Source: Pyrinomonadaceae bacterium
Lineage (GTDB): Bacteria; Acidobacteriota; Blastocatellia; Pyrinomonadales; Pyrinomonadaceae
DNA: 30,312 nucleotides
NCBI GenBank assembly: GCA_035553235.1
Contig: DATNDM010000210.1
Location: 1 to 30,312 of the forward strand
Direction: 5' to 3'
Shown here: positions 1 to 29,977 of the stretch, in pieces
How positions within the stretch are numbered: position 1 is the stretch's first letter
Layout of the letters: each line of letters starts with the position of its first letter
Notes under the pieces: generated by a model
The model's input: the letters and a program-made list of their open reading frames with translations, nothing else
Database searches by the model: none
Told to the model about the DNA's origin: nothing
Made by a program: the position numbers and the translations under genes

Positions 1-2523
1 CAGCGGCTGCAATGCACCGAAGACGTAGTGCTGCTGAGTTGTTGGCAGGGGCTGTTGTCGCAACTAACCGGCGAAACTGCTGTAACAACCACGCACGTCC
101 ACAATGGCCGCAAGTATGACGAATTAGCGGATGCGTTCGGCTTGTTTGCCCGGTCTCTACCGCTGGGCGTCACCTTCGATGAAGGAATGACCTTCGCCGC
201 GCTGGTGCAGGACGTAAATGAGCGAGTCACGGAAGGCGGCCAGTGGCAGGAATATTTTGTGCCGGACGAATTAGCACTTGGCCGGTGCTACGGCGGCGGC
301 ATTGGCTATGAGTACGAGCTGCGTCCGCATTCATTTGCAGGACCAGATGTGCGGCTCGAGATAGTGGCGCAGCAAGTCGAGTGTCAAAGCGAGACAGTGA
401 AACTGCAGTGTGTCCGTGCGGACGGAGAATTGACGGCCACAGTTGATTATGACCCGACGGTGTACGAGTCAACGTGGATGCAAATCGTCGCCGAGCAGAT
501 GAAGGAAATCGTCGACAGCGCAGTAGAGAAGGGAGAGCATGCCCCGATATCGGATTTGAACATGGTCTCTGAAACTCAGCGCCAGGTGAACTTGATCGAA
601 TCGAACAGAACGAGCAAGGAGTACCCGAACTCGAAGAGTATTCACGAGTTGATCGAGGAGCAGGTTGCGCGCACGCCCGAACAGATCGCGCTGGTTAGCG
701 GCATTGAGCAGTTTAACTATCGCGAATTGAACGAGCGCGCGAACCAGTTGGCCCATCACCTCCGTTCTCTCGGCGTTGGACCAGAAGTATTTGTCGCAGT
801 TTACATGGATCGATCTGTCGACATGGTCGTGTCCCTGCTCGCAGTTCTCAAGGCGGGCGGAGCCTATGTGCCGCTCGATACCACATACCCATACGAGCGT
901 CTCTCTTTCATGATCGCGGACGCTCAAGTGCCGGTACTCCTGACCCAGGAAAGCATGATGGCGCGCTTGCCTGAGCACGAGGCGAAGGTGATCTACGTCG
1001 ATTCTGAATGGTCGACTGTGGCAACGCAGAGCAGCGCCAATCCGGTCCGCAATGTCGACGCGGACAATGCCGCTTACGTTATCTATACGTCCGGCTCAAC
1101 CGGTATGCCCAAAGGCGTCGTCGTTCCGCACAAGGGACTCGTCAACTATCTGAGCTGGTGCACGGAGACCTACAGAGTGGCTGAAGGTGTCGGGGCGCTG
1201 GTGCATTCGCCGCTGGGATTTGACTTGACGGTCACGAGTATTTTCTCGCCGCTGCTGGCTGGAAAAAGTTTGTTCCTCATTCCTGAAGAAGACGGAATTG
1301 ATGGGCTGACAACTGCGCTGCGCAACGGCAGAAATTTCAGTTTGCTCAAAGTTACGCCGTCTCACCTGGAAATGCTGAACCAGATGCTGACCGGTGACGA
1401 GCTCCGCGGCAGGGTCAACGCTCTGATCATCGGAGGCGAAGCATTGTCAGGTGAAACCGTCGCTTTCTGGAGAGAGCATGCACCCGAGACAAGAATCATC
1501 AACGAATATGGACCAACCGAGACTGTCGTGGGCTGCTGCGTTTACGAGATACCGGATGGAGACACGAACGCCGGCCCGGTGCCTATCGGTCGGCCCATTG
1601 CCAACACAAACATTTACCTGCTCGACAAGAACCTGCGGCCCGTCGCGACGGGTGTCCCCGGCGAACTCTACATCGGCGGTGACGGGTTGGCGCGCGGCTA
1701 CCTGGCGCAGCCGCAGATAACCGCCGAAAGATTCATCCCACATCCATTCAGCGAGAAAGCCGGCGAGCGGATTTATCGCACCGGAGACATGGCACGCTAT
1801 CGGGACAACGGCGAGATCGAATATCTCGGCAGGGTGGACCACCAGGTCAAGGTTCGAGGTTTTCGTGTGGAACTGGGCGAGATTGAAGCTGTGCTCAGAC
1901 AACATCCCCAAATCAACGAAGTCGTTGTCATGACTCGTGAAGAGGTGCTCGGCGACAGGCGCATAGTCGCTTACGTCGTGTCCCCCGAGGGTGCAGATGT
2001 TTCCGTTAACGATATTCGCCGCTTCCTGAGTGTCAAACTACCTGAATACATGATGCCGTCGTCGTTCGTCACACTCAGTGCACTCCCACTGACACCGAAC
2101 GGCAAAGTTGATCGAGAAGCATTGCCCGCGCCCGGACTCGGACGCGCTGGTATGGAAGAGGCCTATGTTGCGCCACGCACTGTTCTCGAAGAGGCGGTCG
2201 CTCGGATATGGGCCGAGACTATCGGCATCGAGTTGCTGGGCGTGCATGACAACTTTTTCGAACTGGGTGGGCACTCGTTATTGGCTACGCAAGTGATCTC
2301 CCGAATCAGAGAGGAATTTGAGGTCGAGCTGCCGGTACGCATGATGTTCGAAGGCATGACGGTCGCAGAGATGGCTGCCGCGATCGTGAGTCGAGAGATG
2401 CATCCGGGTCAGAGTGAGAAGATCGCACAAACGATGAAGGCCGTCGAAGAGATGAGTGAAGGAGAGTTTGTGCAAATGCTGGAACTCAAGAGGGAGTCGC
2501 ATGACATCCAAAGACTTAGTTAA
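1..2523 (+). CDS. NRPS, 5'-truncated: C-terminal part of an atypical condensation-like domain, A domain (predicted Asn), PCP, C-terminal docking helix
   Basis: Frame is open from base 1 (CAG CGG CTG...). A motifs [41 protein letters not shown]. Manually extracted code DLTKIGEVGK matches the Asn-type code. [14 protein letters not shown]. Stop TAA at 2521-2523. Confidence 0.93.
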
Positions 2524-5500
2524 GAAGCGTGAACTGGTAACTTATCTACTCGAGGCTGAAGGCTTCCGGTTCTCATCCAAAGCTAAGATTACGCGCCGGG
2601 CCAACCCCGAAGAGCTGCCGCTCTCATACGCGCAGCAGCGCTTGTGGTTCCTTGAGCAACTCGGCGATACATCTTCAGCTTACAATATTCCGCTGCCGGT
2701 GCTTATCAGTGGACCTCTCGACGTCAAAGCGCTCACTCGAGCTCTCAACGAAATCATTCGTCGTCATGAAGTCCTGCGTGCCTCGTTTGGCTCGCTCTAC
2801 GGTCAAACGCTGCAATTGATCGCACCGAAGGTGGAGTTATCTATCCCGCTCACCGACTTGTCGGCAGTACCTGCCGAACAGCGGCAGCAGGAACTGCGGC
2901 GTCTGATCCAGCTCGACGCTTCCCGCCCGTTTGATCTGACTACCGGCCCATTGATGCGCGCCTCGCTGCTGCAACTGGACGTTGAAGAGTATGCCGCGCT
3001 GCTGACCATGCACCACATCGTTTCGGACGGCTGGTCCACTTCCGTGCTGCTCAAGGAACTGGGCATTCTTTATGAGGCGTTTGCGGAAGGACGTCGCTCG
3101 CCACTGCCGGAGTTGTCAATCCAGTATGCGGATTATGCGAGTTGGCAACGAGAGCGATTAACCGGCGACGTTTTGCAGGCGCAACTGGGTTATTGGAAAC
3201 AACAATTGGCCCACGCGCCGGCCATGATAGAGCTGCCGACCGACCGCCCGCGCCCGCCGATCAAGAGTTTTCGAGGCAGCCGCGAGGGCATTGTGTTGCC
3301 GGCCTCGTTGGGTGAAGCGCTGAGAAGCCTGAGCCAGCGCGAAGGCGTCACTCTGTTCATGACGCTGCTCTCTGCCTTCTACATTCTGTTATGGCGCTAC
3401 AGCGGGCAAGCCGACATCGTCGTCGGGACACCGATTGCCGGACGAAATCGCGCGGAGCTCGAACCCTTAATCGGCTTCTTTGTGAACACCCTGGCCTTGC
3501 GCACCGAGGTGCGCGGTGCTGAAAACTTCAGAGAGTTGCTCGGACGCGTGAAGGAAACCTGTCTCGGAGCGTATGCCCATGAAGATCTGCCGTTCGAAAA
3601 GTTAGTCGAAGAGTTGCAGCCGGAACGTAGCCTCGATCACACGCCGCTGTTCCAGGTGATGTTCATGTTGCAGCAAGGTGGCGGTGCGACCATTGAGTTG
3701 AAAAAACTTCGTCTCTCTCCGTTGGAGATCGAAGACGACACGGAAAAATTTGACCTGACACTGCTTGCAGACGAGAGCGAACCGCTAATGCAGTTAGTAG
3801 TGGGTTACAACACCGACCTGTTTGACGCTGAGACGATCAGGCGGATGCTGAATCATTACCGGCAGGTGTTACAGGCGGTCGTGACTAACCCACGCGAGCG
3901 GCTTTCTGAGTTGCGCCTGCTGACAGAGCCTGAGCGGCGGCAGATCGTCATGGAGTGGAATGACACAGCAGTGCAGTGGCCGGCTGCGGAAGACGCTAAG
4001 ATCGGCATGCTGCATGAGCTGTTCGAACGACAAGTTGAACGCACGCCTTCAGCGATCGCATTGAGCTTCGAAGGCCAGGAACTCAGCTATCAAGAATTAA
4101 ACAGGCGTGCTAACCAACTGGCCCATCATCTGCGTGGGCTCGACGTCGGCCCAGAGATTCAGGTAGGCGTAATGATGGAGCGTTCGCTGGAGATGGTCAT
4201 CAGCCTGCTGGCGATCCTGAAAGCGGGCGGCGCGTATGTACCTTTCGATCCGAGTTATCCGGAAGAACGACTGGCCTTCATGTTGAAGGATGCAGCCGTC
4301 AAAGTTTTGCTTACGCAGGCGGGGCTGCTTGCGCGACTGCCGGAATCAGAACGAGACAACTCAACTGTCAAAGTGCTGGCCGTGGATCGGCTGCGGGAGC
4401 AATTGCGGGAGCAAGCGAGCACTAACCCGCAAGTGCGGCTGACGGGCGCAAACCTGGCGTACATGATCTACACCTCAGGTTCGACCGGGTCACCGAAAGG
4501 AGTACTCAACACTCATGGCGGCATCGTCAACCGCTTGTTGTGGATGCAGCAACGTTACCAGTTGCAGTCCGATGATGTGGTCTTACAGAAAACTCCATTC
4601 AGCTTCGATGTTTCGGTGTGGGAATTCTTTTGGCCGTTGCTCGCGGGAGCGCGGTTAGTAGTAGCGCGGCCCGAAGGTCATCGTGATCCCGAGTATCTGG
4701 TCGAAGTCATCAACAGAGAAAAAGTCACGACGGTCCACTTTGTGCCGGCGATGTTGCAAGCGTTCCTCACCAATGAATCGGTAAGCGCGGGTTGTGGGAG
4801 CGTGCGTCGTATTATCTGTAGCGGCGAAGCCTTAAGTGTCGAATTAGCCGAGCAATGCATGGAGCGATTGCCGCACGCCGAGCTGCACAACTTGTATGGT
4901 CCAACTGAAGCAGCGGTCGACGTGACCGCCTGGCATTGCAAGCCGGGAGAGCAACGCGCGTCAGTGCCCATCGGCCGGCCGATCTCCAACACGCAAATCT
5001 ACATTCTCAACCGCGAAATGCAGCCGGTCCCGATCGGCGTCAGCGGAGAGCTTTACATCGGCGGCGCCGGTTTAGCGAGAGGCTATCATGGCCGGCCGGG
5101 CCTGACCGCCGAACGTTTCATTGCACATCCGCTGGGTCAAAGGCCGGGCGAGCGTTTATATCGCACGGGAGACATCGCGCGCTTTCGTGCGGACGGCGCG
5201 ATCGAGTACATGGGCCGCGAGGACCATCAAGTCAAGATCAGAGGCTATCGGATTGAGTTGGGAGAGATCGAAACAGTGCTGCGGGAGCACGAGCAGGTGC
5301 AAGACGCAGTGGTTATCGCCGACGTCGACGCCACGGGAGACAAACGTCTCGTCGCGTATCTGACCGTGGCAAATCATGATGTGCTGAAGACGACAGAGCT
5401 GAGAACATATCTAAGTCAACGCTTACCGGATTACATGGTGCCGCACGGTTTTGTGCAGCTTACCGAATGGCCACTGACGCCGAGCGGAAAGCTGGACCGG

Positions 5501-8500
5501 CGCGCCTTGCCGGCTCCCAACTTGAAACGGTCGCAAATGGACGGCGCTTATGTCGCCCCGCGCACGAGCGCGGAGGAAGTGCTGGCGGCCGTGTGGTCGC
5601 AGGTGTTGTCAATCGAGCAAGTCGGCGCCTTCGACAATTTCTTCTCTCTGGGTGGTGATTCGATCCGCAGCCTGCAGATAGTGGCCTTGGCCCGCCAACG
5701 CGGCTTGCATTTCACTCTTCAACAATTGTTCCAGCATCAGACCGTGGCGACGCTGGCGGCGGCTGCAACACAGCCTGAGAGTCAGACGGAAGCTCGTCAG
5801 GAAACAGCCAGTGAGCCCTTTGGCCTGATCAGTGCGGCAGACCGTGCCAGGTTGCCGGAAGGCGTGGAGGATGCCTATCCGTTAACAATGCTGCAGGGTG
5901 GCATGTTGTATCACATGCAGCTAACCCCGCAGACACCGCTTTATCACAACGTAAACAGTATGCAGCTCCGTGCTGCGCTGGACGTGGAACTACTCCGCGA
6001 GGCCGCCGCCATGGTGGTTGCCCGTCACGCCGCTCTGCGCACCGGCTTCGACTTGAGCCATTACAGCGAGCCCTTACAGTTGGTCCACCTGCATGCCGTC
6101 ATGGACGTCGGCTTTGACGACATCAGTTCACTGGATACGCAGGAACAGGAGACCCTGATTGATAAGTTCGTCGAGGCCGAAAAGCGACGCAGCTTTGATC
6201 TGAGTCAACCGCCGTTGATGCGTTTCTTCATTCATCGCCGCAGTGATGAGACTTTCCAGTTCACGCTCACGGAATGTCACCCGATTCAGGATGGCTGGAG
6301 TTTGCATACAGTGCTGGCGGAGGCGTTCAGCTATTACTTCGCTCGGCTGAACGGCGAACCGGTTCCAGAGCTTGAACCAATCGCAATCAGCTACAGGGAG
6401 TTTGTGCGCATGGAGCGGGAGGCGCTGGCGAGCGAAGAGCACAAGCTGTTCTGGCGCCGTAAACTCGAAGGCAGTATGACGCTGACATTGCCGCGTTGGG
6501 AAAAATCGCAGCAAGTATCGGGGCGAGCAAATGTCGATGGGCCAACTGAGGTCAAATTCCGCAACGTAAAAATCCCTCCGAAATTGTCGGAAGACCTGAA
6601 GGCGTTAGCGCGCACCCTGGCGGTGCCAATCAAGAGCGTGATCCTCGCCGCGCACATGAAAGTCCTGAACATTCTCAGTGGCTCGACCGACATCCTTACC
6701 GGCGTGGTCAGCAATGGCCGATCTGAGGAGATTGGTGGTGAGCGAACGGTGGGCCTGTTCCTGAACACGCTGCCGTTTCGTCAGCAAGTCACGGGGGGAA
6801 CGTGGGAGGATTTGATACGGGGAACATTCGACACTGAATGGGAGTTGTTGCCATACCGGCGTTATCCGATGGCCGCGTTGCAACAGGGTCGCAGCGGGCA
6901 GTTGTATGAGACCGCTTTTAATTTCATACATTTTCACGTCGTCGATAGTGTGGTCCGCTCCGGTAACGTCGACGTGTTGGCGACTAAAGCATCGGAAGGT
7001 ACGAACTGGACGCTGCAAGCGCATTTTTCATTGGGCCTGGATGCACTGCATTTGGACCTACAGCTCGAGTACAACTCATTAGAGCTGGCTGATGAACAGA
7101 TGGAAGACATCGAGGGCTATTACCTGGGCGTACTGCAGGCAATGGCGCTGAACCCGCTGGCCAATCATCAATACCAGAGCTTCCTCTCAGCCGCGGAGCA
7201 ACAGAAACAGTTGACGGACGGCCGCGGAGTCATGGGTGAATATCCGGTGGACCGGAGCTTCGATGAGCTCTTCCGCGCTCAAGTGGAGCTGACGCCGGAC
7301 GCGGTCGCAGTAGTGAGTGACACCGGGGAGGTAAGTTACCGAGAGTTGAATGAGCGGGCGAATCAATTGGCCCACTGGCTGCGAGCAGCGGGAGTAGGAC
7401 CAGAAGCGGTAGTAGGGTTGCTGGCCGAACGCAGCGAGGGACTGCTGATCGGGATGCTGGGAGTGTTCAAGGTCGGGGCAGCGTATCTGCCGCTCGATCC
7501 GCGGCAGCCGGGCTGGCGACAACAGCAGGTGATAGAGCAGAGCGGGATGCGGCTGGTGCTGGCCAGTGGCCCGTATCAAGCTCAGCTGCGCGCAGCGCTG
7601 CAGGGCGTGCCCGCAGCAGCGCAGCCGGAAGTGCATGACCTGGAGGAACCGTGGCAACCGGGTTCGCAGTGGAGCAAAGCGGCGGTGGTGACTAAGGGCC
7701 AGCCGGACCAACTGGCCTATGTGATCTATACGTCGGGATCGACTGGTGTGCCCAAGGGCGCCATGATTACGCAAGCGGGAATGATCAATCACCTGTGTGC
7801 GAAGGTGGCGGAGTTGGGGTTGGGAAGTGCCGACCGCGTGGCGCAGACAGCGACGCAGAGCTTCGACATTTCAGTCTGGCAGTTTTTGGCCGCGTTGCTG
7901 GCCGGGGGACAAGTACGGATCGTGAGCGACGAAGTTGGCCTCGATCCGCGCGCGTTGCTGCGGTTGGTGTCCGAGAGCGGCGTGACAATCCTGGAGACGG
8001 TGCCGTCGATGCTGGGAGCGCTGCTCGAAGAGCTGGAATCCGGGAGTGACCAGGGAGTAATTGGAGCGGCACGGCTCGGGCAATTGCGCTGGCTGATTGT
8101 GACGGGCGAGGCCTTGCCGCCGGAGTTATGCCGGCGCTGGGCGGCTATTGGAGCGAGCGAGACGCGGTTGCTCAATGCGTATGGACCAACGGAATGCGCC
8201 GACGATGTAACGCATTTCGAAGTGCGCGGTGAAGTGGCGGCGGGGACGATGCGGATCCCGATCGGGCGGCCGTTGGGGAACACGCGTTTGTACGTCGTGA
8301 ATAAAGCTTTGACGCTGGTGCCGCGCGGAGTCGTCGGAGAGTTGTATGTGGGCGGCACGGGAGTCGGGCGCGGCTACTTGCAGGAGCCGAAGCAGACGGC
8401 GCTGAGCTTTGTGCCGGATCCGTTTAGTGGAGAGAGCGGCGCACGGTTGTACCGGACGGGAGACCTGGTCCGGCAGCGTGCTGACGGAGAGTTGGAGTAC

Positions 8501-9199
8501 GTCGGGCGGATAGACCAGCAGGTGAAGGTGCGAGGCTACCGCATTGAGTTAGGAGAGATCGAAGCAGTGCTGAGTGGGCACGTGGCAGTGCAGGAGGCGG
8601 TGGTAGTAGCGCGTGCCGATGCGGGCGGCGAGCAGCGGCTGGTGGGTTACGTAGTGCCGCAGGCAGCCGGCGAGGAGAATGGTCCGGTAACGGTGAGTGA
8701 CTTGCGGGCCTATCTGCGCGAGCGGTTGCCGGAGTATATGGTGCCGCAGGCGTTGGTGCTGCTCGCGCAACTTCCGTTAACGCCCAACGGCAAGATTGAT
8801 CGCAAGGCTTTACCCGCTCCCGAAGGACCAGAGACACAGGAAACTCTGACGTACGTAGCCCCGCGAACCGAGTTGGAGCAGCGGATTGCGGCTATCTGGC
8901 AATCGGTGTTGGGGGTCGAGAAGGTCGGAATGCATGATAACTTCTTCGACCTGGGAGGACATTCCATCCTTTTGATTGAAGCCAGCAGTAAACTCAGGGT
9001 CGCGCTGGAAAGGGAATTATCGGTGGTTGATATGTTTCGCCATCCGACGGTAAGTGCGATGGCTGAGTTCCTGAGCGCAGCACAACCGCAAGATCTGAAC
9101 TTTGCCGAGAATGTGGAACGAGCGAGTGTGCGTCGAGTTTCTGCAAACCGATTGCGTGAAAGAAAGCAGCAGCGTCAAAACGCAAACGCCGCAAAATAG
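2501..9199 (+). CDS. Two-module NRPS: C(LCL)-A(Ser)-PCP-C*(non-canonical)-A(diamino acid, Dap/Dab)-PCP
   Basis: ATG at 2501 follows AGGGAG (2491-2496) and overlaps the upstream gene by 23 nt, so it is preferred over the track start 2456. C1 HHIVSDG. A code DVWHISLVDK (Ser type). PCP GGDSI. C2 starts EDAYPL and has ECHPIQDG. A code DIWEITADDK (diamino-acid type). PCP GGHSI. Confidence 0.93.
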
Positions 9200-9464: not shown

Positions 9465-11921
9465 ATGGAAACCTTCATCCAGGATCTCAAACACGGCGCC
9501 CGTATGTTGATAAAAACTCCGGGCTTTACTGCGGTGGCGGTGTTGACACTGGCGCTGGGTATCGGCGCTAACACGGCTATCTTCAGCGTGGTGAACGCTG
9601 TTTTGCTTCGGCCTTTACCTTTCACCGAGCCGCAGCGATTGATAATCATCGGCGAAGCCAACGCCAGTCAAAAGGGCGCCGAAGGAGAGATCGGCATTGC
9701 GCCAGCCAACTATGTGGACTATGCCAAAGAGAACAAAACATTCGAGCGCATGGGCCTATTCTCGATGACGGTGCGCACGGGCTTCAATCTCGGAGGCGCC
9801 GAGGATCCGGAACGCCTGACGGCCGCAAATATCTCGTCGCAACTCTTTCCCACGCTGGGCGTGAATCCGATTTACGGTCGACAGTTTTTCCCGGACGATG
9901 AGAAGCAGGGAAACAATCGCTCCGTCATCCTGAGTTACGACCTCTGGCAACGCCGCTTCGGCGCAGACCCGGGCATCATCAACAAACCGATCACGCTTAA
10001 TGGCGCCAGCTATCAGGTGGTCGGTGTTATGCCGCAGGGATTTCAGTTTCCCACGAAAGATTTACTGCCCGAGCTTCAGACTTTGGCGAAACCTGTTGAG
10101 TTGTGGGTCCCACTCTCGCTCAACGACGCCGCCTGGACCGCGCGCGGGTCACGTTTCCTGCATGCCATCGGACGTCTTAAACCAGGCGTCACGATTGAAC
10201 AAGCAAGGGCTGACTTGAACACTATCGCAGCTCGTCTCGCGCAGCAGTATGAACAGGACCAGGGCTGGACCGCGAAAGTTGTTTCCCTGCAGGCCCAGAT
10301 CGTCGGTTCGATCAGGCTGGCGCTGCTCGTTCTCTTCGGAGCCGTTGGCTTTGTATTGCTGATTGCGTGCTCGAACGTGGCAAACCTTCTGCTCGCACGA
10401 GCCGCCACGCGACAGAAGGAGATCGCCGTCCGCCTTGCGCTCGGTGCTAATCGATTACGGCTTGTGCGCCAGTTGTTGACGGAAGGCTTTCTACTCGTCT
10501 TGATCGGCGGGCCGCTCGGAATGTTGCTGGCGGTGGCCGGCGTCAATGTTCTCGTTTCAATCAGTCCGCAGAGTATTCCGTTGTCTTCGCAACTCGGACT
10601 CGATGCACGAGTCGTCGCGTTCACACTGGTAGTTTCTTTTCTCACGGTGATTATTTTCGGACTAGTGCCCGCGCTGCAGTCGTCGAAGGTGGACCTCAGC
10701 AACGCGATGAAGGAAGGCGGCTCGCGCGGGACCACGAGCAGCGGTCTGCGTGTGCGTAATATCCTCGTCGTCTCTGAACTTGTATTGGCAGCCGTGTTGC
10801 TGGTGGGAGCAGGGTTGATGGTGAAGAGTTTCATGCGGCTCCAGAATGTCGATCCCGGCTTTGACCCGAATAACGTACTGACTTTTCAGTACACCTTACC
10901 GGCCGCAAAATACCCGGATGATCCTCAGATCATTGCCTTCAATGGCCAGCTTATCGAACGTCTCAAAGCGTTGCCGGGTGTCGACTCAGTAAGCGGTGCT
11001 TCGGCGCTGCCGCTCGGTAAACAGAGCAACTACACTTCCTTCACCATTGACGGGCAGCCGCCCCTGCCACCGGGAGAATTCCTGCTGTCCGAACACATCG
11101 GAGTCTTTCCTGACTACTTCAAAACGATGCACGTACAACTGCGAAAGGGGCGTGACTTCACCGCGCATGACACGCAGCAGAGTGCTCCCGTCGTGATCAT
11201 CAATGAAGCCATGGCTAACCAGTTCTGGCCCAACGATAATCCCATCGGAAAGTCGATCAAGATTGACTACGATCAGGGTGTCTCGCGTGAAATCATCGGC
11301 ATCGTCAACAACATCAAGAACTTCAGTCTGGACACGCCGGCGAAGGCCGAGATGTATGTACCTCAATTCCAATTTCCTTTTTACTCGACGTTCCTGGTCG
11401 TGCATGGCAAGGGCGACCCGAAGGACATGGTGATGCCGGTCACCAGGACCGTCGCGGGATTGGACAAGGACCAACCGATCTACAACATCAAGCCGATGAC
11501 GGAAGTGCTGAATGCATCTGTGGCCCGGCAGCGTTTCACTATGTTGTTGATGAGTTGCTTTGCAGCGCTCGCGGCGATACTCGCGGCGATCGGGTTGTAT
11601 GGTGTGATGTCATATTCGGTGAGCCTGCGCTCGCAGGAAATGGGTATTCGCATGGCGCTCGGTTCGCAACGTAAGGACATCCTCAAACTGATTATCGGCC
11701 ACGGGTTGAAGTTGGCTATCATTGGCGTTGTCATTGGTCTAATCATCGCTTTGGGTCTGACGCGTCTCCTCCAAAGTCTTTTATTCGGAATCAGCGCAAA
11801 CGATCCGGTCACCTTTATCGCCATCGCCTTACTGTTGGCCGTCGTGGCGGTGTTGGCAAGCATAATTCCCGCCCGCCGGGCCATGAGAGTCGATCCGATG
11901 GTGGCTCTCAGATACGAATAG
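9465..11921 (+). CDS. ABC transporter permease, duplicated MacB/FtsX type (ADOP, acidobacterial duplicated orphan permease-like)
   Basis: N-terminus [47 protein letters not shown], internal [30 protein letters not shown]-terminus [17 protein letters not shown]. 818 aa, two periplasmic/FtsX halves, no ATPase motifs. Confidence 0.92.
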
Positions 11922-11924
11922 TTA

Positions 11925-12056
11925 GTGACCTGATTTGAACTGCTTCGCTGTGCAACCTCTGTGTTCTCTGTGTCTCTGTGGTGGTTTTTTTGAACGATTC
12001 TTAACCACAGAGGCACAGAGAACACAGAGGTTGCACAGAGAAATCTCTCTCAAACC
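11925..12056. repeat. Family-1 hairpin repeat, copy 2 (flank subtype shared with copy 5)
   Basis: Arms 11948-11982 and 12004-12038 with 1 mismatch. Flanks GTGACCTGATTTGAACTGCTTC and AAATCTCTCTCAAACC match copy 5 in reverse complement. Confidence 0.9.
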
Positions 12057-12111
12057 ATGGCACCACCCCTAGTCCCCAGCTTTTAAATCGTAGTTCCCGG
12101 GCCTTCCCGTG

Positions 12112-12131
12112 AGCAGAGGATCGCCTCTGCT
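12112..12131 (+). promoter_or_regulatory. Small stem-loop just upstream of the PEARL-like gene (possible translational or terminator element)
   Basis: AGCAGAGG-ATCG-CCTCTGCT: perfect 8-bp stem ending 13 nt before ATG 12145. Function not demonstrated. Confidence 0.3.
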
Positions 12132-12144
12132 TGAAGTGATACCC

Positions 12145-14817
12145 ATGTACAATCAGGCTTTCTTCAGAGCGAGTTGGGCCAACGCTGATAACGCCCCTGG
12201 CCACACCGCCACAATTTCCGGTTCAGCAGTTTCTAAACAAGAGCGCGCAGCGCTGCCGTCGCACCTGGTACGTCTGGATGCGGACTGGGCCGTGTGGAGA
12301 TGTGTGGGATTGCGCGGCGCCGGTTTTCCGGCGAACTCAGTGTTGTCGCTGACTGCACCGGAATGTGCGTTAGCGGCTGACAACCTGCTGGCGGGCGAAA
12401 AAGATGTGCAGCTCGAGCGCGAAGCCGCCCTCGAAGTATTTCGTGAATCGCTGGACGACCTCCGCAACGAGGGTCGTTGGGATGACAAGAAGCGCCGCAA
12501 CAGCTTGCTCGATGACGTGCGGCTCCTCAAGTCGGACAAGTTGCCGAAGGCGAAAGAGTCGACGCCGCGGCAACAAGCTGTGATTGAGAGGTTGCGTGCC
12601 GCGCTGGCAAGAGTGGAAGAACTCAAGACTGAATTTCATGACGCCTTCAAAACAGCTGCAGCCCAAAGCTCCGAAACGTTGCGTGAAGTGGCGAATGAAA
12701 AGCTCTTCCGCGAAGCCATCACATGGCAGAACCGAGCGGCGTTGCACGGAGGTGTAGAAAGGTTAGACGCGTCACCGAGTACTGCAGGTGAAGGCAAGCG
12801 CCGCAAGCATGAATCCATCGTTGCCAGCTACCTGCAACGATACTGCGTCAAGAACGATACGATTGGTTTCTTCGGCCCGGTTGGTTGGGCCAGATTCAAT
12901 GAAGACAATCCGGGTATACACGTAACCACATCATCGCACATGGTAGCCGCCCGTCATGTTTATTTTGAAGGGTGGGCCATGGATGCTCTGACCAATACGC
13001 TCAATAAGAATGCGTCGCTGCGCCGGTGGTGTGCGCCACGTCGTTTGCCGTTCATTTTTCTTGACGGCGATACCCTACACGTACCGATGCGCCGGCCATT
13101 GCGTTTAGCTGCGAAGCATGCGGCGGTGCTGCGACAGTGCAATGGAGATCTCACTGCGCACCAGATCGCGCAATCGTTGTTGTCTGGACGTGTCGAAGGC
13201 CTGAGCAACGAGCGAGAGGTCTACGCGATCCTGGACGGACTCTTAACGCAGAGACTGATCGTTTGGCAGTGGGAGTTGCCCCTGGAGGCTTTTTCTGAAC
13301 GGCGCTTGCGGCAGTTGCTCGAGCGAATCGAAGACAAACCTTTGCGCGAAACCACGCTGTCGTCGCTGAAACAATTAGAACACGCTCGAGACGACGTGGC
13401 CGCGGCCGCCGGAGATCCCGCGAAACTCGATGCTGCCTTGAATGTGCTGGAAGAAACGTTCACGACTCTGACTGGCGCCGCCCCGACACAGGCTGCCGGG
13501 CGAACTTACGGAGCGAGAACGATTGTTTACGAAGATTGCCGCCGCAGTACGCAGGTTGAGGTGGGCAGCGAAATCATTAACGAATTGCGCCAGCCATTGA
13601 GCCTGCTGTTGCAGAGTGCGCGCTGGTTCACGTTTGAAGCGGCAAAGGTCATGCGTGACGAGTTGCGCGGAATCTACCGTGAGCTGGTGAAGAAAAACGG
13701 CGGTAGTCGCGGCGTCGATGGTCTGTCTTTTTGGTTACAGGCGCAGGTGCAGATGTTTGGTCATAGCGTAAACGGGCAGAATAATTTTGAGGCGCCTATC
13801 CTGAACGAACTGCAAGGCATCTTTCAGCAACGTTGGCAAGATGTGCTCGGAATGTACGAGGGTCAGCAGCAGGTGAAGTGGCGCAGTAGTGAGCTACGTG
13901 AACGAGCGGAGAAGGCATTCGCAGCGCCGCACGCCGGCTGGAGCTTGGGCAGGTATCACAGTCCGGACATTATGATTGCCACCAGGGACGCTGAGAGTCT
14001 CAAACGCGGTGATTACGAGTTTGTAATGGGCGAGCTTCACCTCGCAAACAATACACTCGGAGCCTCACTCTTCGTCGAGCAGCATGAATCCCCGCAAGAG
14101 CTCATCGGCTTCTTCGAAAGTGATATGCCGGGCGTACGAGCTGTACCGATGACGCCGAAAGAGTGGCTGACGGCGCGCATCAATTATCGATTCATCTCGT
14201 CGCGGGATTATCGCATCGAGCTTACCGTCAACTCGTTTCATGGCCAGCGAGAACGCGCTCTTCCGATTGCCGCACTCGTCGTCGAAGAGAGCGAGGATGG
14301 TCTCGTGGCGCGCACCCGCGATGGCAGTTTGTGTTTCGACATGATCGAGCTCTTCGGCGGGATGTTCTCAGGATTTGTTGTTAACCAGTTTAAGCTGGTG
14401 CGAGACTTACCACACACACCGCGTATCACCATCGATCGTCTTATCGTCTCGCGAGAAACCTGGCGTTTTCCGCCCGCTGACATAACCTTTGCCACGATCA
14501 AAGACGATGCAGATCGATACGTCGCGGCACGTCGCTGGGTCCAGCAAAACTCGCTGCCCCGTTTCGTCTTCGTCAAAGCGCCGGTTGAGCCCAAACCGGT
14601 CTACGTGGACTTTGACAGTCCCATCTTCGTCCACCTGCTGGCGAAGATAGTCCGGCGCCAGGCTCAGGAAGGGAAAGAAGCAGCGACGATTGCATTCTCG
14701 GAGATGATGCCGACATTCGAACAACTTTGGTTGCCGGATGCTGAAGACAACCGTTACACGAGCGAATTCAGGATAGTTGCTCTGGATCTCGCGGAGACCA
14801 CAGAGGCGGGCAAATAG
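12145..14817 (+). CDS. Stand-alone lantibiotic dehydratase N-terminal-domain protein (PEARL / short LanB-like, aminoacyl-tRNA-dependent ligase family)
   Basis: Motifs WRCVGLRGAGFP, YLQRYCVKNDTIGFFGP (12829-12879), YHSPD, GELH and C-terminal LPRFVFVK..EPKPVYVDFDSP..SEMMP..RYTSEFR. The protein ends there, without an elimination domain. Start uncertain (GTG 12109 or ATG 12145). Confidence 0.88.
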   Translation: MYNQAFFRASWANADNAPGHTATISGSAVSKQERAALPSHLVRLDADWAVWRCVGLRGAGFPANSVLSLTAPECALAADNLLAGEKDVQLEREAALEVFRESLDDLRNEGRWDDKKRRNSLLDDVRLLKSDKLPKAKESTPRQQAVIERLRAALARVEELKTEFHDAFKTAAAQSSETLREVANEKLFREAITWQNRAALHGGVERLDASPSTAGEGKRRKHESIVASYLQRYCVKNDTIGFFGPVGWARFNEDNPGIHVTTSSHMVAARHVYFEGWAMDALTNTLNKNASLRRWCAPRRLPFIFLDGDTLHVPMRRPLRLAAKHAAVLRQCNGDLTAHQIAQSLLSGRVEGLSNEREVYAILDGLLTQRLIVWQWELPLEAFSERRLRQLLERIEDKPLRETTLSSLKQLEHARDDVAAAAGDPAKLDAALNVLEETFTTLTGAAPTQAAGRTYGARTIVYEDCRRSTQVEVGSEIINELRQPLSLLLQSARWFTFEAAKVMRDELRGIYRELVKKNGGSRGVDGLSFWLQAQVQMFGHSVNGQNNFEAPILNELQGIFQQRWQDVLGMYEGQQQVKWRSSELRERAEKAFAAPHAGWSLGRYHSPDIMIATRDAESLKRGDYEFVMGELHLANNTLGASLFVEQHESPQELIGFFESDMPGVRAVPMTPKEWLTARINYRFISSRDYRIELTVNSFHGQRERALPIAALVVEESEDGLVARTRDGSLCFDMIELFGGMFSGFVVNQFKLVRDLPHTPRITIDRLIVSRETWRFPPADITFATIKDDADRYVAARRWVQQNSLPRFVFVKAPVEPKPVYVDFDSPIFVHLLAKIVRRQAQEGKEAATIAFSEMMPTFEQLWLPDAEDNRYTSEFRIVALDLAETTEAGK

Positions 14818-14859
14818 ATAAGCCGTTCGTCCAGAGCGTAGTAAGGAGGGAGAGTTGCA

Positions 14860-15912
14860 ATGATCGACGCGACGTTTGCCGAAACTGTTTTGAAGAAACC
14901 GGGCGCCATCAAGCGAAAGGCGGTAGGTCTCTCGCCCACGAGCCTCGTCAAAACAAGCCGGCTACCTGGAAACAACTTGCTGCCGCTGGTCGTCGAGCCG
15001 GCTTTCAGAGACGTCAACCTCGTCGAGTGGGCGACCAACAATCGCGAGTTCGTAAAAAAGAATATTCACGAATCTGGTGGGATACTCTTCCGCAATTTCA
15101 ACGTCTCGAATGCAGATGATTTTGAAGATTTCGCCAAAGCTGCGTCGGGCAGCGAACTCCTCGAGTACCGCGAACGTTCTTCGCCACGCAGTCAGATCAG
15201 CGGCAACGTTTATACGTCAACAGACTATCCCGCGGACCACAACATCTTTCTGCATAACGAAAACTCGTACCAGCACACCTGGCCTCTCAGAATCTTTTTC
15301 TACTGCGCGCAGGCAGCCCTAACCGGAGGTGAGACCCCGATCGCCGACACACGCCGGATTAGAGTTCGCATCCCACAAGAAATCCAACAGCGCTTCATAG
15401 AGAAAAAATGGATGTACGTGCGCAACTTCAGCGAAAGGTTCGGACTTCCGTGGCAGACGGTCTTTCAAACGACGGACAAGAGCGTGGTGGAGGAATACTG
15501 TCGCCGGAACGGCATCATGGTCGAGTGGCGCGAAGATGATCGTCTGACGACTCGCGCGATCCGTCCGGTCATTACGAGGCATCCGGAAACGGGTGAAGAT
15601 GTTTGGTTCAATCACGCGACGTTTTTTCATGTCACTACGCTCGAACCCACTGTTCGCGACGTATTTCTAACCGCCTTCAAGGAAGAAGATCTGCCAACGA
15701 ATACGTATTACGGAGACGGGACGCCAATCGAATCAGCGGTGCTTGATGAGCTACGGGATATTTATCGTGCGGAGACGGTCAGCTTCCCATGGCAAGAGGG
15801 AGACGTCCTGATGTTGGACAACATGCTGGCCGCTCACGGCCGCTCGTCATACTCAGGTCCACGCAAGATATTCGTCGCCATGACTGACCCAATCAGCCGC
15901 GACGACGCATAG
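14860..15912 (+). CDS. TauD/TfdA-family Fe(II)/2-oxoglutarate dioxygenase, SyrP-like (probable PCP-bound Asp/Asn beta-hydroxylase)
   Basis: VYTSTDYP..IFLHNENSY (HxE iron motif), GGETPIAD, WFNHA, DNMLAAHGR (distal His/Arg). SD-like AAGGAGG upstream. Confidence 0.88.
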   Translation: MIDATFAETVLKKPGAIKRKAVGLSPTSLVKTSRLPGNNLLPLVVEPAFRDVNLVEWATNNREFVKKNIHESGGILFRNFNVSNADDFEDFAKAASGSELLEYRERSSPRSQISGNVYTSTDYPADHNIFLHNENSYQHTWPLRIFFYCAQAALTGGETPIADTRRIRVRIPQEIQQRFIEKKWMYVRNFSERFGLPWQTVFQTTDKSVVEEYCRRNGIMVEWREDDRLTTRAIRPVITRHPETGEDVWFNHATFFHVTTLEPTVRDVFLTAFKEEDLPTNTYYGDGTPIESAVLDELRDIYRAETVSFPWQEGDVLMLDNMLAAHGRSSYSGPRKIFVAMTDPISRDDA

Positions 15913-28874: not shown

Positions 28875-28939
28875 AGCGTCGCTCCCGTCATTTGTGTCAT
28901 TCCCCTTTAGAGAAACAACAGCTCGGAGGGCGGAAACCA

Positions 28940-29977
28940 ATGCTGGCAGAAGAAAGTATCTCGAGCCGTGCGCGTGACGGCGTTTTATCAGCTATCGGAA
29001 ACACACCACTGGTCAGGTTGCAAAACGTTCTGGGCGACATAACGTTCAATTTGTATGGCAAGCTGGAGATGCTAAATCCCGGCGGTAGTATCAAAGACAG
29101 AACGGCGATCAGTATCCTGCAACATGGTCTTGACACCGGTGAAATCAACGTCGGGACCGTTATCGTTGAGTCCAGTTCAGGCAACATGGGGATCGGTCTC
29201 GCCCAGGCCTGCTTGCAACTCGGGTTGAGGTTCGTCTGTGTCGTGGATCCAAAGACCACGCAACAGAACATTCGCATACTCGAGGCCTACGGGGCAGAGT
29301 TAGATTACGTTAGTGAGCCTGATCCGGTGACGGGCGAATACCTTCAGGCTCGTCTCAACCGGGTGAAATACAAGTTGGGCACTATCAGCAACAGCTTTTG
29401 GCCCAATCAATACGCCAATCTTTACAACCCAAAAGCCCATAGCCATACGATGCATGAGATCGTGACGCAATTGGACGGAAAGCTTGACTATCTATTTTGC
29501 GCGACGAGCACGTGTGGAACGATGCGTGGGTGTGCTGAATACGTGCGCGAGCATCACTTGCCCACAAGGATCATGGCTGTTGACGCGGTCGGCAGTGTCA
29601 TCTTTGGAGGCCCGCGCAAGAAACGCCTGATTCCCGGGCATGGCGCCGCCGTGACGCCGGCGTTATTCGCACCGAACCTGGCCCACCAGGCGATTCATGT
29701 TACCGATGTTGATTGCATAGTGGGCTGTCGCCGCCTGGCGCGAAAGGAAGCGATTCTGGCCGGTGGTTCATCGGGCGCCGTGATCATGGCGGTGGAGAAG
29801 ATCCGGGATTCGATCGAGCCCGATGCCAACTGCGTCGTTATCTTTCCGGATCGAGGGGAACGGTATCTTGACACCATCTATTCCAACGATTGGGTCGAGA
29901 CGCATTTTGGTTCCCTTGAGTACTTGTACGAGAGTTCTGATTACCCGGAACTGATGGAAGTTGCGGAAACTGCTTAA
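28940..29977 (+). CDS. sbnA: PLP-dependent 2,3-diaminopropionate biosynthesis enzyme SbnA-like (cysteine synthase fold)
   Basis: IGNTPLV, KLEMLNPGGSIKDR (PLP Lys), VESSSGNMG, WPNQYAN, STCGT, RLIPGHGA, PDRGERYLDTIY. The WxNQYAN and STxG motifs fit SbnA better than CysK. ATG 28940 follows GGAGG. Confidence 0.85.
   Translation: MLAEESISSRARDGVLSAIGNTPLVRLQNVLGDITFNLYGKLEMLNPGGSIKDRTAISILQHGLDTGEINVGTVIVESSSGNMGIGLAQACLQLGLRFVCVVDPKTTQQNIRILEAYGAELDYVSEPDPVTGEYLQARLNRVKYKLGTISNSFWPNQYANLYNPKAHSHTMHEIVTQLDGKLDYLFCATSTCGTMRGCAEYVREHHLPTRIMAVDAVGSVIFGGPRKKRLIPGHGAAVTPALFAPNLAHQAIHVTDVDCIVGCRRLARKEAILAGGSSGAVIMAVEKIRDSIEPDANCVVIFPDRGERYLDTIYSNDWVETHFGSLEYLYESSDYPELMEVAETA

Follow-up and report, generated by a model that had tools for sequence, protein, structure and literature searches.

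The ECHPIQDG condensation domain of a Pyrinomonadaceae nonribosomal peptide synthetase is placed by sequence in the dehydrating CmodAA family

Condensation domains of the CmodAA family dehydrate acyl-Ser or acyl-Thr on the donor peptidyl carrier protein (PCP) before condensation, as described for AmbE, AlbB and AzeB-C2, and an alpha-proton/E1cB mechanism has been established or proposed for these three (PMC10880069; 10.64898/2026.07.17.738954). Published features of the family are a [K/R]SVLLAAH helix before motif C5, a conserved T and E, an RR pair at the start of motif C6 and a strict DG, and the first His of the HHxxxDG motif is missing in seven of 50 published domains, with Cys at this position in FclJ-C2 and Zmn17-C2 (PMC11342130). 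The ureido-forming C_urea domains are related to LCL domains, carry the signature EHHxxHDG and are located in the first elongation module, where a loading A-T unit supplies their free aminoacyl donor; SnaA needs both E744 and H749 (PMC11212132). Here, we describe a condensation domain, referred to as C*, with the active-site motif ECHPIQDG, which is encoded at 5870..7170 in a stretch of 30,312 nucleotides from a Pyrinomonadaceae bacterium (GCA_035553235.1, contig DATNDM010000210.1). This whole stretch is called the window. Our analysis places C* in the CmodAA family and suggests that it probably converts Ser to dehydroalanine on the donor carrier and then forms an ordinary amide.

The window is the whole 30.3-kb contig from a 70%-complete metagenome-assembled genome (MAG). 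A single open frame at 2456-9199, on the forward strand like the two genes that follow it, encodes a nonribosomal peptide synthetase (NRPS) of 2247 amino acids (aa) with the architecture C-A-T-C-A-T. The first module consists of an LCL-type condensation domain (2609..3946) with the motif MHHIVSDG, which matches Pfam Condensation over its full length, groups with LCL domains in our trees and is expected to acylate the Ser amine, an adenylation domain (4022..5515; Pfam AMP-binding) and a donor PCP (5573..5770; translation and domain search) with GGDSI at 5651-5665. The specificity code of the adenylation domain, extracted by alignment, is of the Ser type (DVWHISLVDK), and the donor module of C* thus activates a beta-hydroxy amino acid. 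C* is followed by an acceptor adenylation domain (7250..8830) with the code DIWEITADDK, which suggests a diamino-acid-like substrate, and by an acceptor carrier domain with GGHSI (8879..9073; Pfam PP-binding, protein residues 2142-2206).

The translation of 5651-7170 begins with GGDSI and includes a stretch of 22 residues and, at the active site, one of 11 residues. The codons at 6272-6295, GAA TGT CAC CCG ATT CAG GAT GGC, give E-C-H-P-I-Q-D-G, in which the catalytic second His is present, Cys replaces the first His and Gln precedes DG. The translation and the codons bear out every detail of the motif and of the GGDSI donor in a preliminary description of the window. A sequencing error that would restore HH was considered and ruled out. 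To turn TGT into a His codon takes two base changes, contigs across the motif from four independent soil or rhizosphere runs show zero differences over 6137-6342, and the C and Q of the motif are retained in orthologues at 79-86% identity. Thus, the motif is real, and both a sequencing error and a variant that arose by chance are excluded.

Comparison of C* with solved structures returned the condensation domain of McyA (8jbr) as the first match (355 bits, E 3.5e-105), with approximately 50% identity over the full domain, followed by the dehydrating CmodAA domain of AmbE (7r9x; 210 bits, E 4e-61). Domains of the DCL type (McyB, PvdL, TycB and SrfA-C) were found behind AmbE, at 146 bits or less and E 1e-41 or weaker, and LCL types scored far lower (E 1e-11 to 1e-15). 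For the phylogenetic analysis, every condensation domain of 260 retrieved homologous NRPS proteins was extracted, and clades were anchored by PDB best hits and by one motif-defined C_urea proxy (P0149). The same picture emerged from a FastTree tree of 143 rows and an IQ-TREE LG+C20 tree of 72 rows. LCL-type domains were separated by a long branch (1.41, support 100) from a D-clade, which divides into a DCL-like group, anchored by best hits to McyB, PvdL, BacC, SrfA-C and TycB, and a CmodAA-like group (52 rows, support 99), anchored by best hits to McyA and AmbE. In this phylogeny, of the kind proposed in the preliminary description, C* is positioned deep within the CmodAA-like group, the clade of McyA and AmbE, apart from the DCL, dual and LCL domains.

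The residues of C* give the same assignment. All 28 residues that discriminate the family (conserved to 80% or more in CmodAA-like domains but to no more than 25% in DCL and LCL domains) are present in C*. They include KSVILAAH (K255 to H262; 6632..6655), T277 fifteen residues further on, E286, E323, the CmodAA-typical Arg-Arg pair R330/R331 at the start of motif C6 (6857..6862) and H356. The first of these stretches corresponds to the CmodAA-specific [K/R]SVLLAAH motif, with K255 aligned to the essential R1605 of AmbE in the PDB-search alignment, and these residues agree with the published features of the family (PMC11342130). The second, catalytic His of HHxxxDG is also retained, as in those CmodAA members that still form an amide. 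The start of the domain, D-A-Y-P-L-T, is shared with McyA, which agrees with the modified-amino-acid type of start recognized in the preliminary description. On this sequence evidence, C* belongs to the known dehydrating CmodAA family in the D-clade and does not represent a new kind of condensation chemistry.

Features of the domain that appeared unusual are less so within this family. The preliminary description had regarded a GGDSI donor without an E domain as an oddity, a view that we reject; GGDSI carriers precede 239 of 257 CmodAA-like domains, as compared to GGHSL before 157 of 217 LCL-type domains. The pattern E-x-H-x-x-x-DG, in the form T-E-x-H-x-x-x-DGWS, is common among the closest homologues, with N, C, F, H, L, P or S as the first variable residue. 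By sequence, the Glu before the motif is thus a trait of the CmodAA family, shared by AmbE (EHHSVLDG) and many other relatives. The Cys of C* occurs as ECH in several separate CmodAA sub-branches of the trees, and the family tolerates many substitutions of the first, structural His, Cys being one of them. Two more CmodAA-like domains are encoded in the genome of the window, on short contigs with other NRPS modules (G000:C260 4336-5619, TEHHAILDG; G000:C662 348-1631 on the minus strand, NCHHVILDG), and these are 46% and 42% identical, respectively. Upstream adenylation codes were readable for 48 of 90 sampled CmodAA-like domains, about 23 being of the DLTK/DLTH type (Asp/Asn) and 10 of the Ser type, which suggests that dehydration of beta-hydroxy-Asp/Asn may be common in the family.

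In microcystin synthetase, the best solved relative, the McyA domain, connects the module for N-methyl-Ser (Mdha) with that for Ala. It follows a Ser-activating module whose residue becomes dehydroalanine, as predicted for C*, and the two domains share the KSV-LAAH and RRYP motifs in addition to their start. In contrast to C*, the cyanobacterial McyA has FHHSILDG, with both His residues, Phe for Glu and Leu for Gln, and none of approximately 15 McyA-like SFHHSILDG loci has the neighboring Lant_dehydr_N gene described below. The CmodAA domain of AmbE, AlbB-C2/C3 and AzeB-C2 are biochemically proven dehydrating domains from the same clade as C*. AmbE has the Glu before the motif in common with C*, and its T-C-T arrangement is also that of relatives of C* that lack an acceptor adenylation domain. 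C* differs from AmbE by Cys at the first His and Gln before DG; the acidic residues D1726, D1728, D1734 and E1736 of AmbE are G, N, H and S in C*, and the substrate of AmbE is hydroxylated Glu as compared to plain Ser for C*. FclJ-C2 and Zmn17-C2 display the same C-H-x-x-x-D-G variant as C* (PMC11342130), and here also a Ser/Thr module is located downstream of one or more Asn modules and followed by one amino acid and KS-AT-KR-ACP (PMC5811116). They differ from C* in their Thr donor, and neither a Lant_dehydr_N gene nor the Gln has been reported for them; the comparison with these two is by description only.

The assembly-line position of C* is consistent with dehydration of the donor followed by amide formation, which we consider the best explanation for its function. 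The upstream LCL domain would assemble a dipeptide of an Asn-type aminoacyl residue and Ser on the GGDSI carrier, and the intact MHHIVSDG motif of that domain supports the earlier proposal that the Ser amine is blocked. C* would then take the alpha-proton of Ser with its second His (the H of ECH), and the beta-hydroxyl would leave in E1cB fashion to give dehydroalanine on the donor carrier. Finally, C* would join dehydroalanine by an ordinary amide bond to the residue loaded on the downstream carrier, for which a diamino acid, for example diaminopropionate (Dap), is probable. In relatives with the arrangement C-A-T-C*-T, the last step could be either condensation with a residue loaded in trans or a plain passing of the chain, as in AmbE. 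Since a literature search for the code DIWE[LIV]TADDK gave no match, we can only infer Dap as the acceptor, from the acidic specificity code and from an SbnA equivalog at 28892-29977 in the window.

Of the three outcomes put forward in the preliminary description, this sequence of events corresponds to the first. The second, a bleomycin-like conjugate addition that replaces the amide, is unlikely. Blm-type domains resemble C* in that they belong to the CmodAA family and act on Ser-derived dehydroalanine, but have lost both His residues, with Phe and Gly/Ala instead (PMC11342130), whereas C* keeps the catalytic His; the His-less domains of our dataset form a separate, long-branched clade, apart from C*. 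The third, a carbamate through the Ser hydroxyl, found no support. Both had been suggested to free a carboxylate for the PEARL-like enzyme encoded downstream, for which neither is needed.

The protein clusters with the 16 best scores group tightly in one monophyletic clade (support 99), in which 15 have ECH[A/P]IQDG and one has DFHAIQDG. The Gln before DG (Gln140) is invariant throughout the clade (17 alignment rows). Among 664 motifs of the xxHxxxDG type in the 260 NRPS proteins, Gln was observed at this position 15 times, always in the ECHxxQDG clade. Only five other positions are clade-specific: M31, F230, Y346, W380 and Q383. According to the alignment with AmbE, Q383 (7016..7018) is located on the same strand and face as D1726, D1728, D1734 and E1736 (numbering of PMC10880069), which would place it in the active site. 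A Ser-type code was found in all 15 clade members with a scorable upstream adenylation domain. The acceptor adenylation domain, with the code DIWE[IV]TA[DN]DK, is present in six members; the other ten of the 16 have no acceptor adenylation domain and display the AmbE-like arrangement C-A-T-C*-T. An example of the latter is seen at 10001-15034 of locus L009, where, as in nine other clade proteins, the second carrier has no adenylation domain of its own. The probable role of the invariant Gln140 and Gln383 is to fit the pocket to the polar donor of this cluster family. The ECHxxQDG motif itself marks one uncharacterised cluster family of soil bacteria, which is likely to be acidobacterial.

Downstream of the NRPS gene, the next gene in the ECHxxQDG clade is always a MacB/FtsX-type permease (9465..11921 in the window). 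It is followed by a PEARL-like protein that consists of Lant_dehydr_N only (12109..14817), which has no elimination domain and is always linked to the C* clade. In all eight Gln-type loci with enough downstream sequence, between one and three Lant_dehydr_N-only genes come after the MacB-type permease; these loci are the window (and L035), P0154, P0101, P0220/L009, P0224, L037, L038 and L059. In most Gln-type loci, an OCD-family (SbnB-like) gene and then a TauD gene are located after Lant_dehydr_N. No Lant_dehydr_N gene was found within 10 kb of any of 29 non-Gln CmodAA-like loci, which include three ECH-type controls and the McyA-like loci mentioned above. The preliminary description had proposed to test whether ExHxx[HQ]DG motifs and LanB-N genes occur together. 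They do so in the eight Gln-type loci as compared to the 29 others, but this is limited to one syntenic cluster family, and in evolutionary terms the eight loci amount to one event.

Just four of 400 other genomes from the phylum encode homologues of the Lant_dehydr_N protein, which in some cases are close to CmodAA-like domains (G126) and in others belong to NRPS regions that lack such a domain (G139, G001 and L011). With the protein as query against the genome contigs, only two loci were obtained. One of these is actinobacterial and encodes A-T-C-A-T and a polyketide synthase (PKS), with an ordinary VHHLAIDG condensation domain that is not of the C_urea type. A PDB sequence search with the protein from the window gave no matches. 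The motif YTSE[FL]R at the C-terminus of the protein is kept even in the distant homologues L010 and L011, and appears to resemble the E-x-R phosphorylation residues of PEARLs (PMC11962472). Tandem copies of the gene, from one to three, are located at 12109-14817 in the window, at 14551-19788 in L038, at 6821-12115 in L059 and in the P0101 locus. These copy numbers fit a stepwise extension of a carboxylate, for example of a C-terminus freed by a TE domain, better than a role in the dehydration of a single Ser. None of the clade clusters with a Lant_dehydr_N gene contains a C_urea domain.

A Pfam domain search identified no elimination domain in the window. A separate elimination protein as partner of the Lant_dehydr_N protein was considered and rejected; the sole Lant_dehydr_C match of the genome (C561) adjoins a very different Lant_dehydr_N protein of its own and a nitroreductase. 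This contig (G000:C561, L033, 1-4715) is a fragment of the type encoding peptides that are made on the ribosome and modified after translation (RiPPs), with a nitroreductase-family protein, a Lant_dehydr_N protein of 905 aa and Lant_dehydr_C (a split LanB), and is unrelated to the gene in the window. In another genome, an actinobacterial MAG (G002:C18 42842-78056, L013), a CmodAA-like domain with ECHAILDG is located 11 kb downstream of two LanB-like genes, whose open frames of approximately 1070-1090 aa may represent full-length LanB.

Several observations weigh against simple dehydration and amide formation. The invariant Gln before DG, Gln383, Tyr346 and Trp380 are specific to the ECHxxQDG clade and could signal an altered chemistry, and simple dehydration leaves the exclusive linkage to Lant_dehydr_N unexplained. 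Since ten of the 16 members lack an acceptor adenylation domain, it is not certain that every member forms an amide. Finally, the anchors of the trees are PDB best hits and one motif-defined proxy.

A more tentative explanation, and a rather unlikely one, is that C* makes dehydroalanine and the amide and also promotes or permits the aza-Michael addition of a nearby nitrogen, for which the Dap beta-amine, the Asn side chain and a free N-terminus are candidates. Side-chain conjugation of this kind has been proposed for FclJ-C2 and Zmn17-C2 of fabclavine and zeamine, and both share with C* the Cys at the first His (PMC11342130). The order Asn, Ser/Thr, C*, X and PKS (KS-AT-KR-ACP) recalls Zmn16-18, where the residue derived from Thr is linked to the side chain of Asn (PMC5811116), and the polar, clade-specific Q140 and Q383 in or near the predicted active site are consistent with such a capture. 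However, Cys at the first His occurs in several separate CmodAA sub-branches in unrelated contexts and is therefore not diagnostic, and the likeness to FclJ and Zmn17 is one of published motif and module order. Moreover, the Dap-type adenylation domain is missing in ten of the 16 clade members, and aza-Michael additions may be spontaneous or due to other enzymes. We find it equally doubtful that the ECHxxQDG/Gln383 site, instead of being a neutral variant, adapts the clade to a second task coupled to the adjacent PEARL-like enzyme or enzymes, which could be either the elimination of an aminoacyl ester that the Lant_dehydr_N protein has placed on Ser or a directed capture of dehydroalanine.

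It is improbable that dehydration is split between two proteins, such that an aminoacyl-tRNA (of Glu, for example) is used by the Lant_dehydr_N protein to esterify the hydroxyl of Ser and C* performs the elimination only. This division of labor would account for the strict linkage of the C* clade and Lant_dehydr_N, with the permease and one to three copies at all eight ECHxxQDG/DFHxxQDG loci as opposed to none of the 29 others, and for the absence of an elimination domain in the window. However, the eight loci represent one syntenic family and one evolutionary event, characterised CmodAA domains do not need activation of the hydroxyl (PMC10880069), and up to three copies for a single Ser are better explained by stepwise extension of the PEARL type. 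SnaE, the only characterised NRPS-linked member, is a ligase (PMC11212132), the YTSE[FL]R motif appears similar to the PEARL E-x-R residues (PMC11962472), and Lant_dehydr_N homologues are found also in NRPS clusters that lack any CmodAA domain.

Slightly less probable still is an ordinary or partly degenerate condensation or transfer domain, with which Ser would be kept and C* would only form an amide or shuttle the chain. The loss of the first His could be taken in this direction, and the T-C*-T arrangement without acceptor adenylation domain in ten of 16 relatives suggests a transfer role. Against this, all 28 discriminating residues and the catalytic His are conserved at overall identities of 56-86%, the donor is invariably of the Ser type, and every characterised member of the clade dehydrates.

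The preliminary description had regarded ECHPIQDG as a variant of the ureido signature. The C_urea domains of SylC and SnaA do resemble C* in the Glu that precedes the motif and in having a polar residue ahead of DG, and the sna cluster, like the window, encodes an NRPS together with a PEARL-like enzyme (PMC11212132). However, C_urea domains require the Glu and the His at +5 and join two free aminoacyl thioesters, whereas in C* the first His is Cys, position +5 is Gln and the donor is N-acylated. The domain is separated from the LCL relatives of C_urea (PMC11212132) by the branch of 1.41, the Glu is common in CmodAA domains that form no ureido bond, including AmbE, and what precedes the donor Ser is an intact LCL domain with an Asn-type module upstream, not a loading A-T unit in front of the first elongation module. 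The only EHHxxHDG domain in our dataset, EHHLVHDG of P0149 (residues approximately 1160-1600), has the same letters as SnaA, falls among LCL domains with 48% identity to one of them and is likely to be ureido-forming. Thus, on phylogeny and assembly-line position we reject a divergent, ureido- or carbamate-forming C_urea domain, with insertion of CO2 between Dap and Ser or the Ser hydroxyl; the likeness of motifs is superficial, and such a function is regarded as extremely improbable.

Other parts of the clusters were also inspected. The first NRPS starts with a C-like domain that scores as Condensation, yet has SLPSLCADNRS in place of HHxxxDG (6745-8060 in L009, corresponding to residues 1-440 of P0249; 1-250 in the window together with contig G000:C321). 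In the trees, this domain has a long branch and falls between the D-clade and the LCL-type domains. Relatives have a TauD gene just upstream, which fits an interface-type domain. Contig G000:C321 (L034, 1-4906) overlaps positions 1-386 of the window at 97% identity; its upstream part contains the beginning of the first NRPS as well as two genes of approximately 465 aa, to which two methyltransferase genes in the same position of the P0154 locus correspond.

For annotation, the combination of E-x-H-x-x-x-DG, a GGDSI donor and a D-A-Y-P-L start indicates a dehydrating CmodAA domain and must not be taken for a ureido signature; the published rule that EHHxxHDG denotes ureido formation stands. The value of the finding is that a tempting mis-annotation is corrected and that a coherent cluster family with a Ser-to-dehydroalanine step and PEARL-like enzymes is flagged, for which ECHxxQDG is a clean marker. 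This family of uncharacterised soil NRPS(-PKS) clusters combines an Asn-type module with TauD hydroxylases, the predicted dehydroalanine step, a supply of diaminopropionate (SbnA in the window and an OCD-family SbnB-like gene in several relatives) and one to three PEARL-like ligases, with no ureido-forming domain. The clusters are a good test case for the role of PEARL-like enzymes in nonribosomal pathways without chain reversal. If C* does have a second task, this would represent a second, ureido-independent mode of cooperation between NRPS assembly lines and PEARL-like ligases, and a directed capture of dehydroalanine would prepare the substrate for tRNA-dependent extension.

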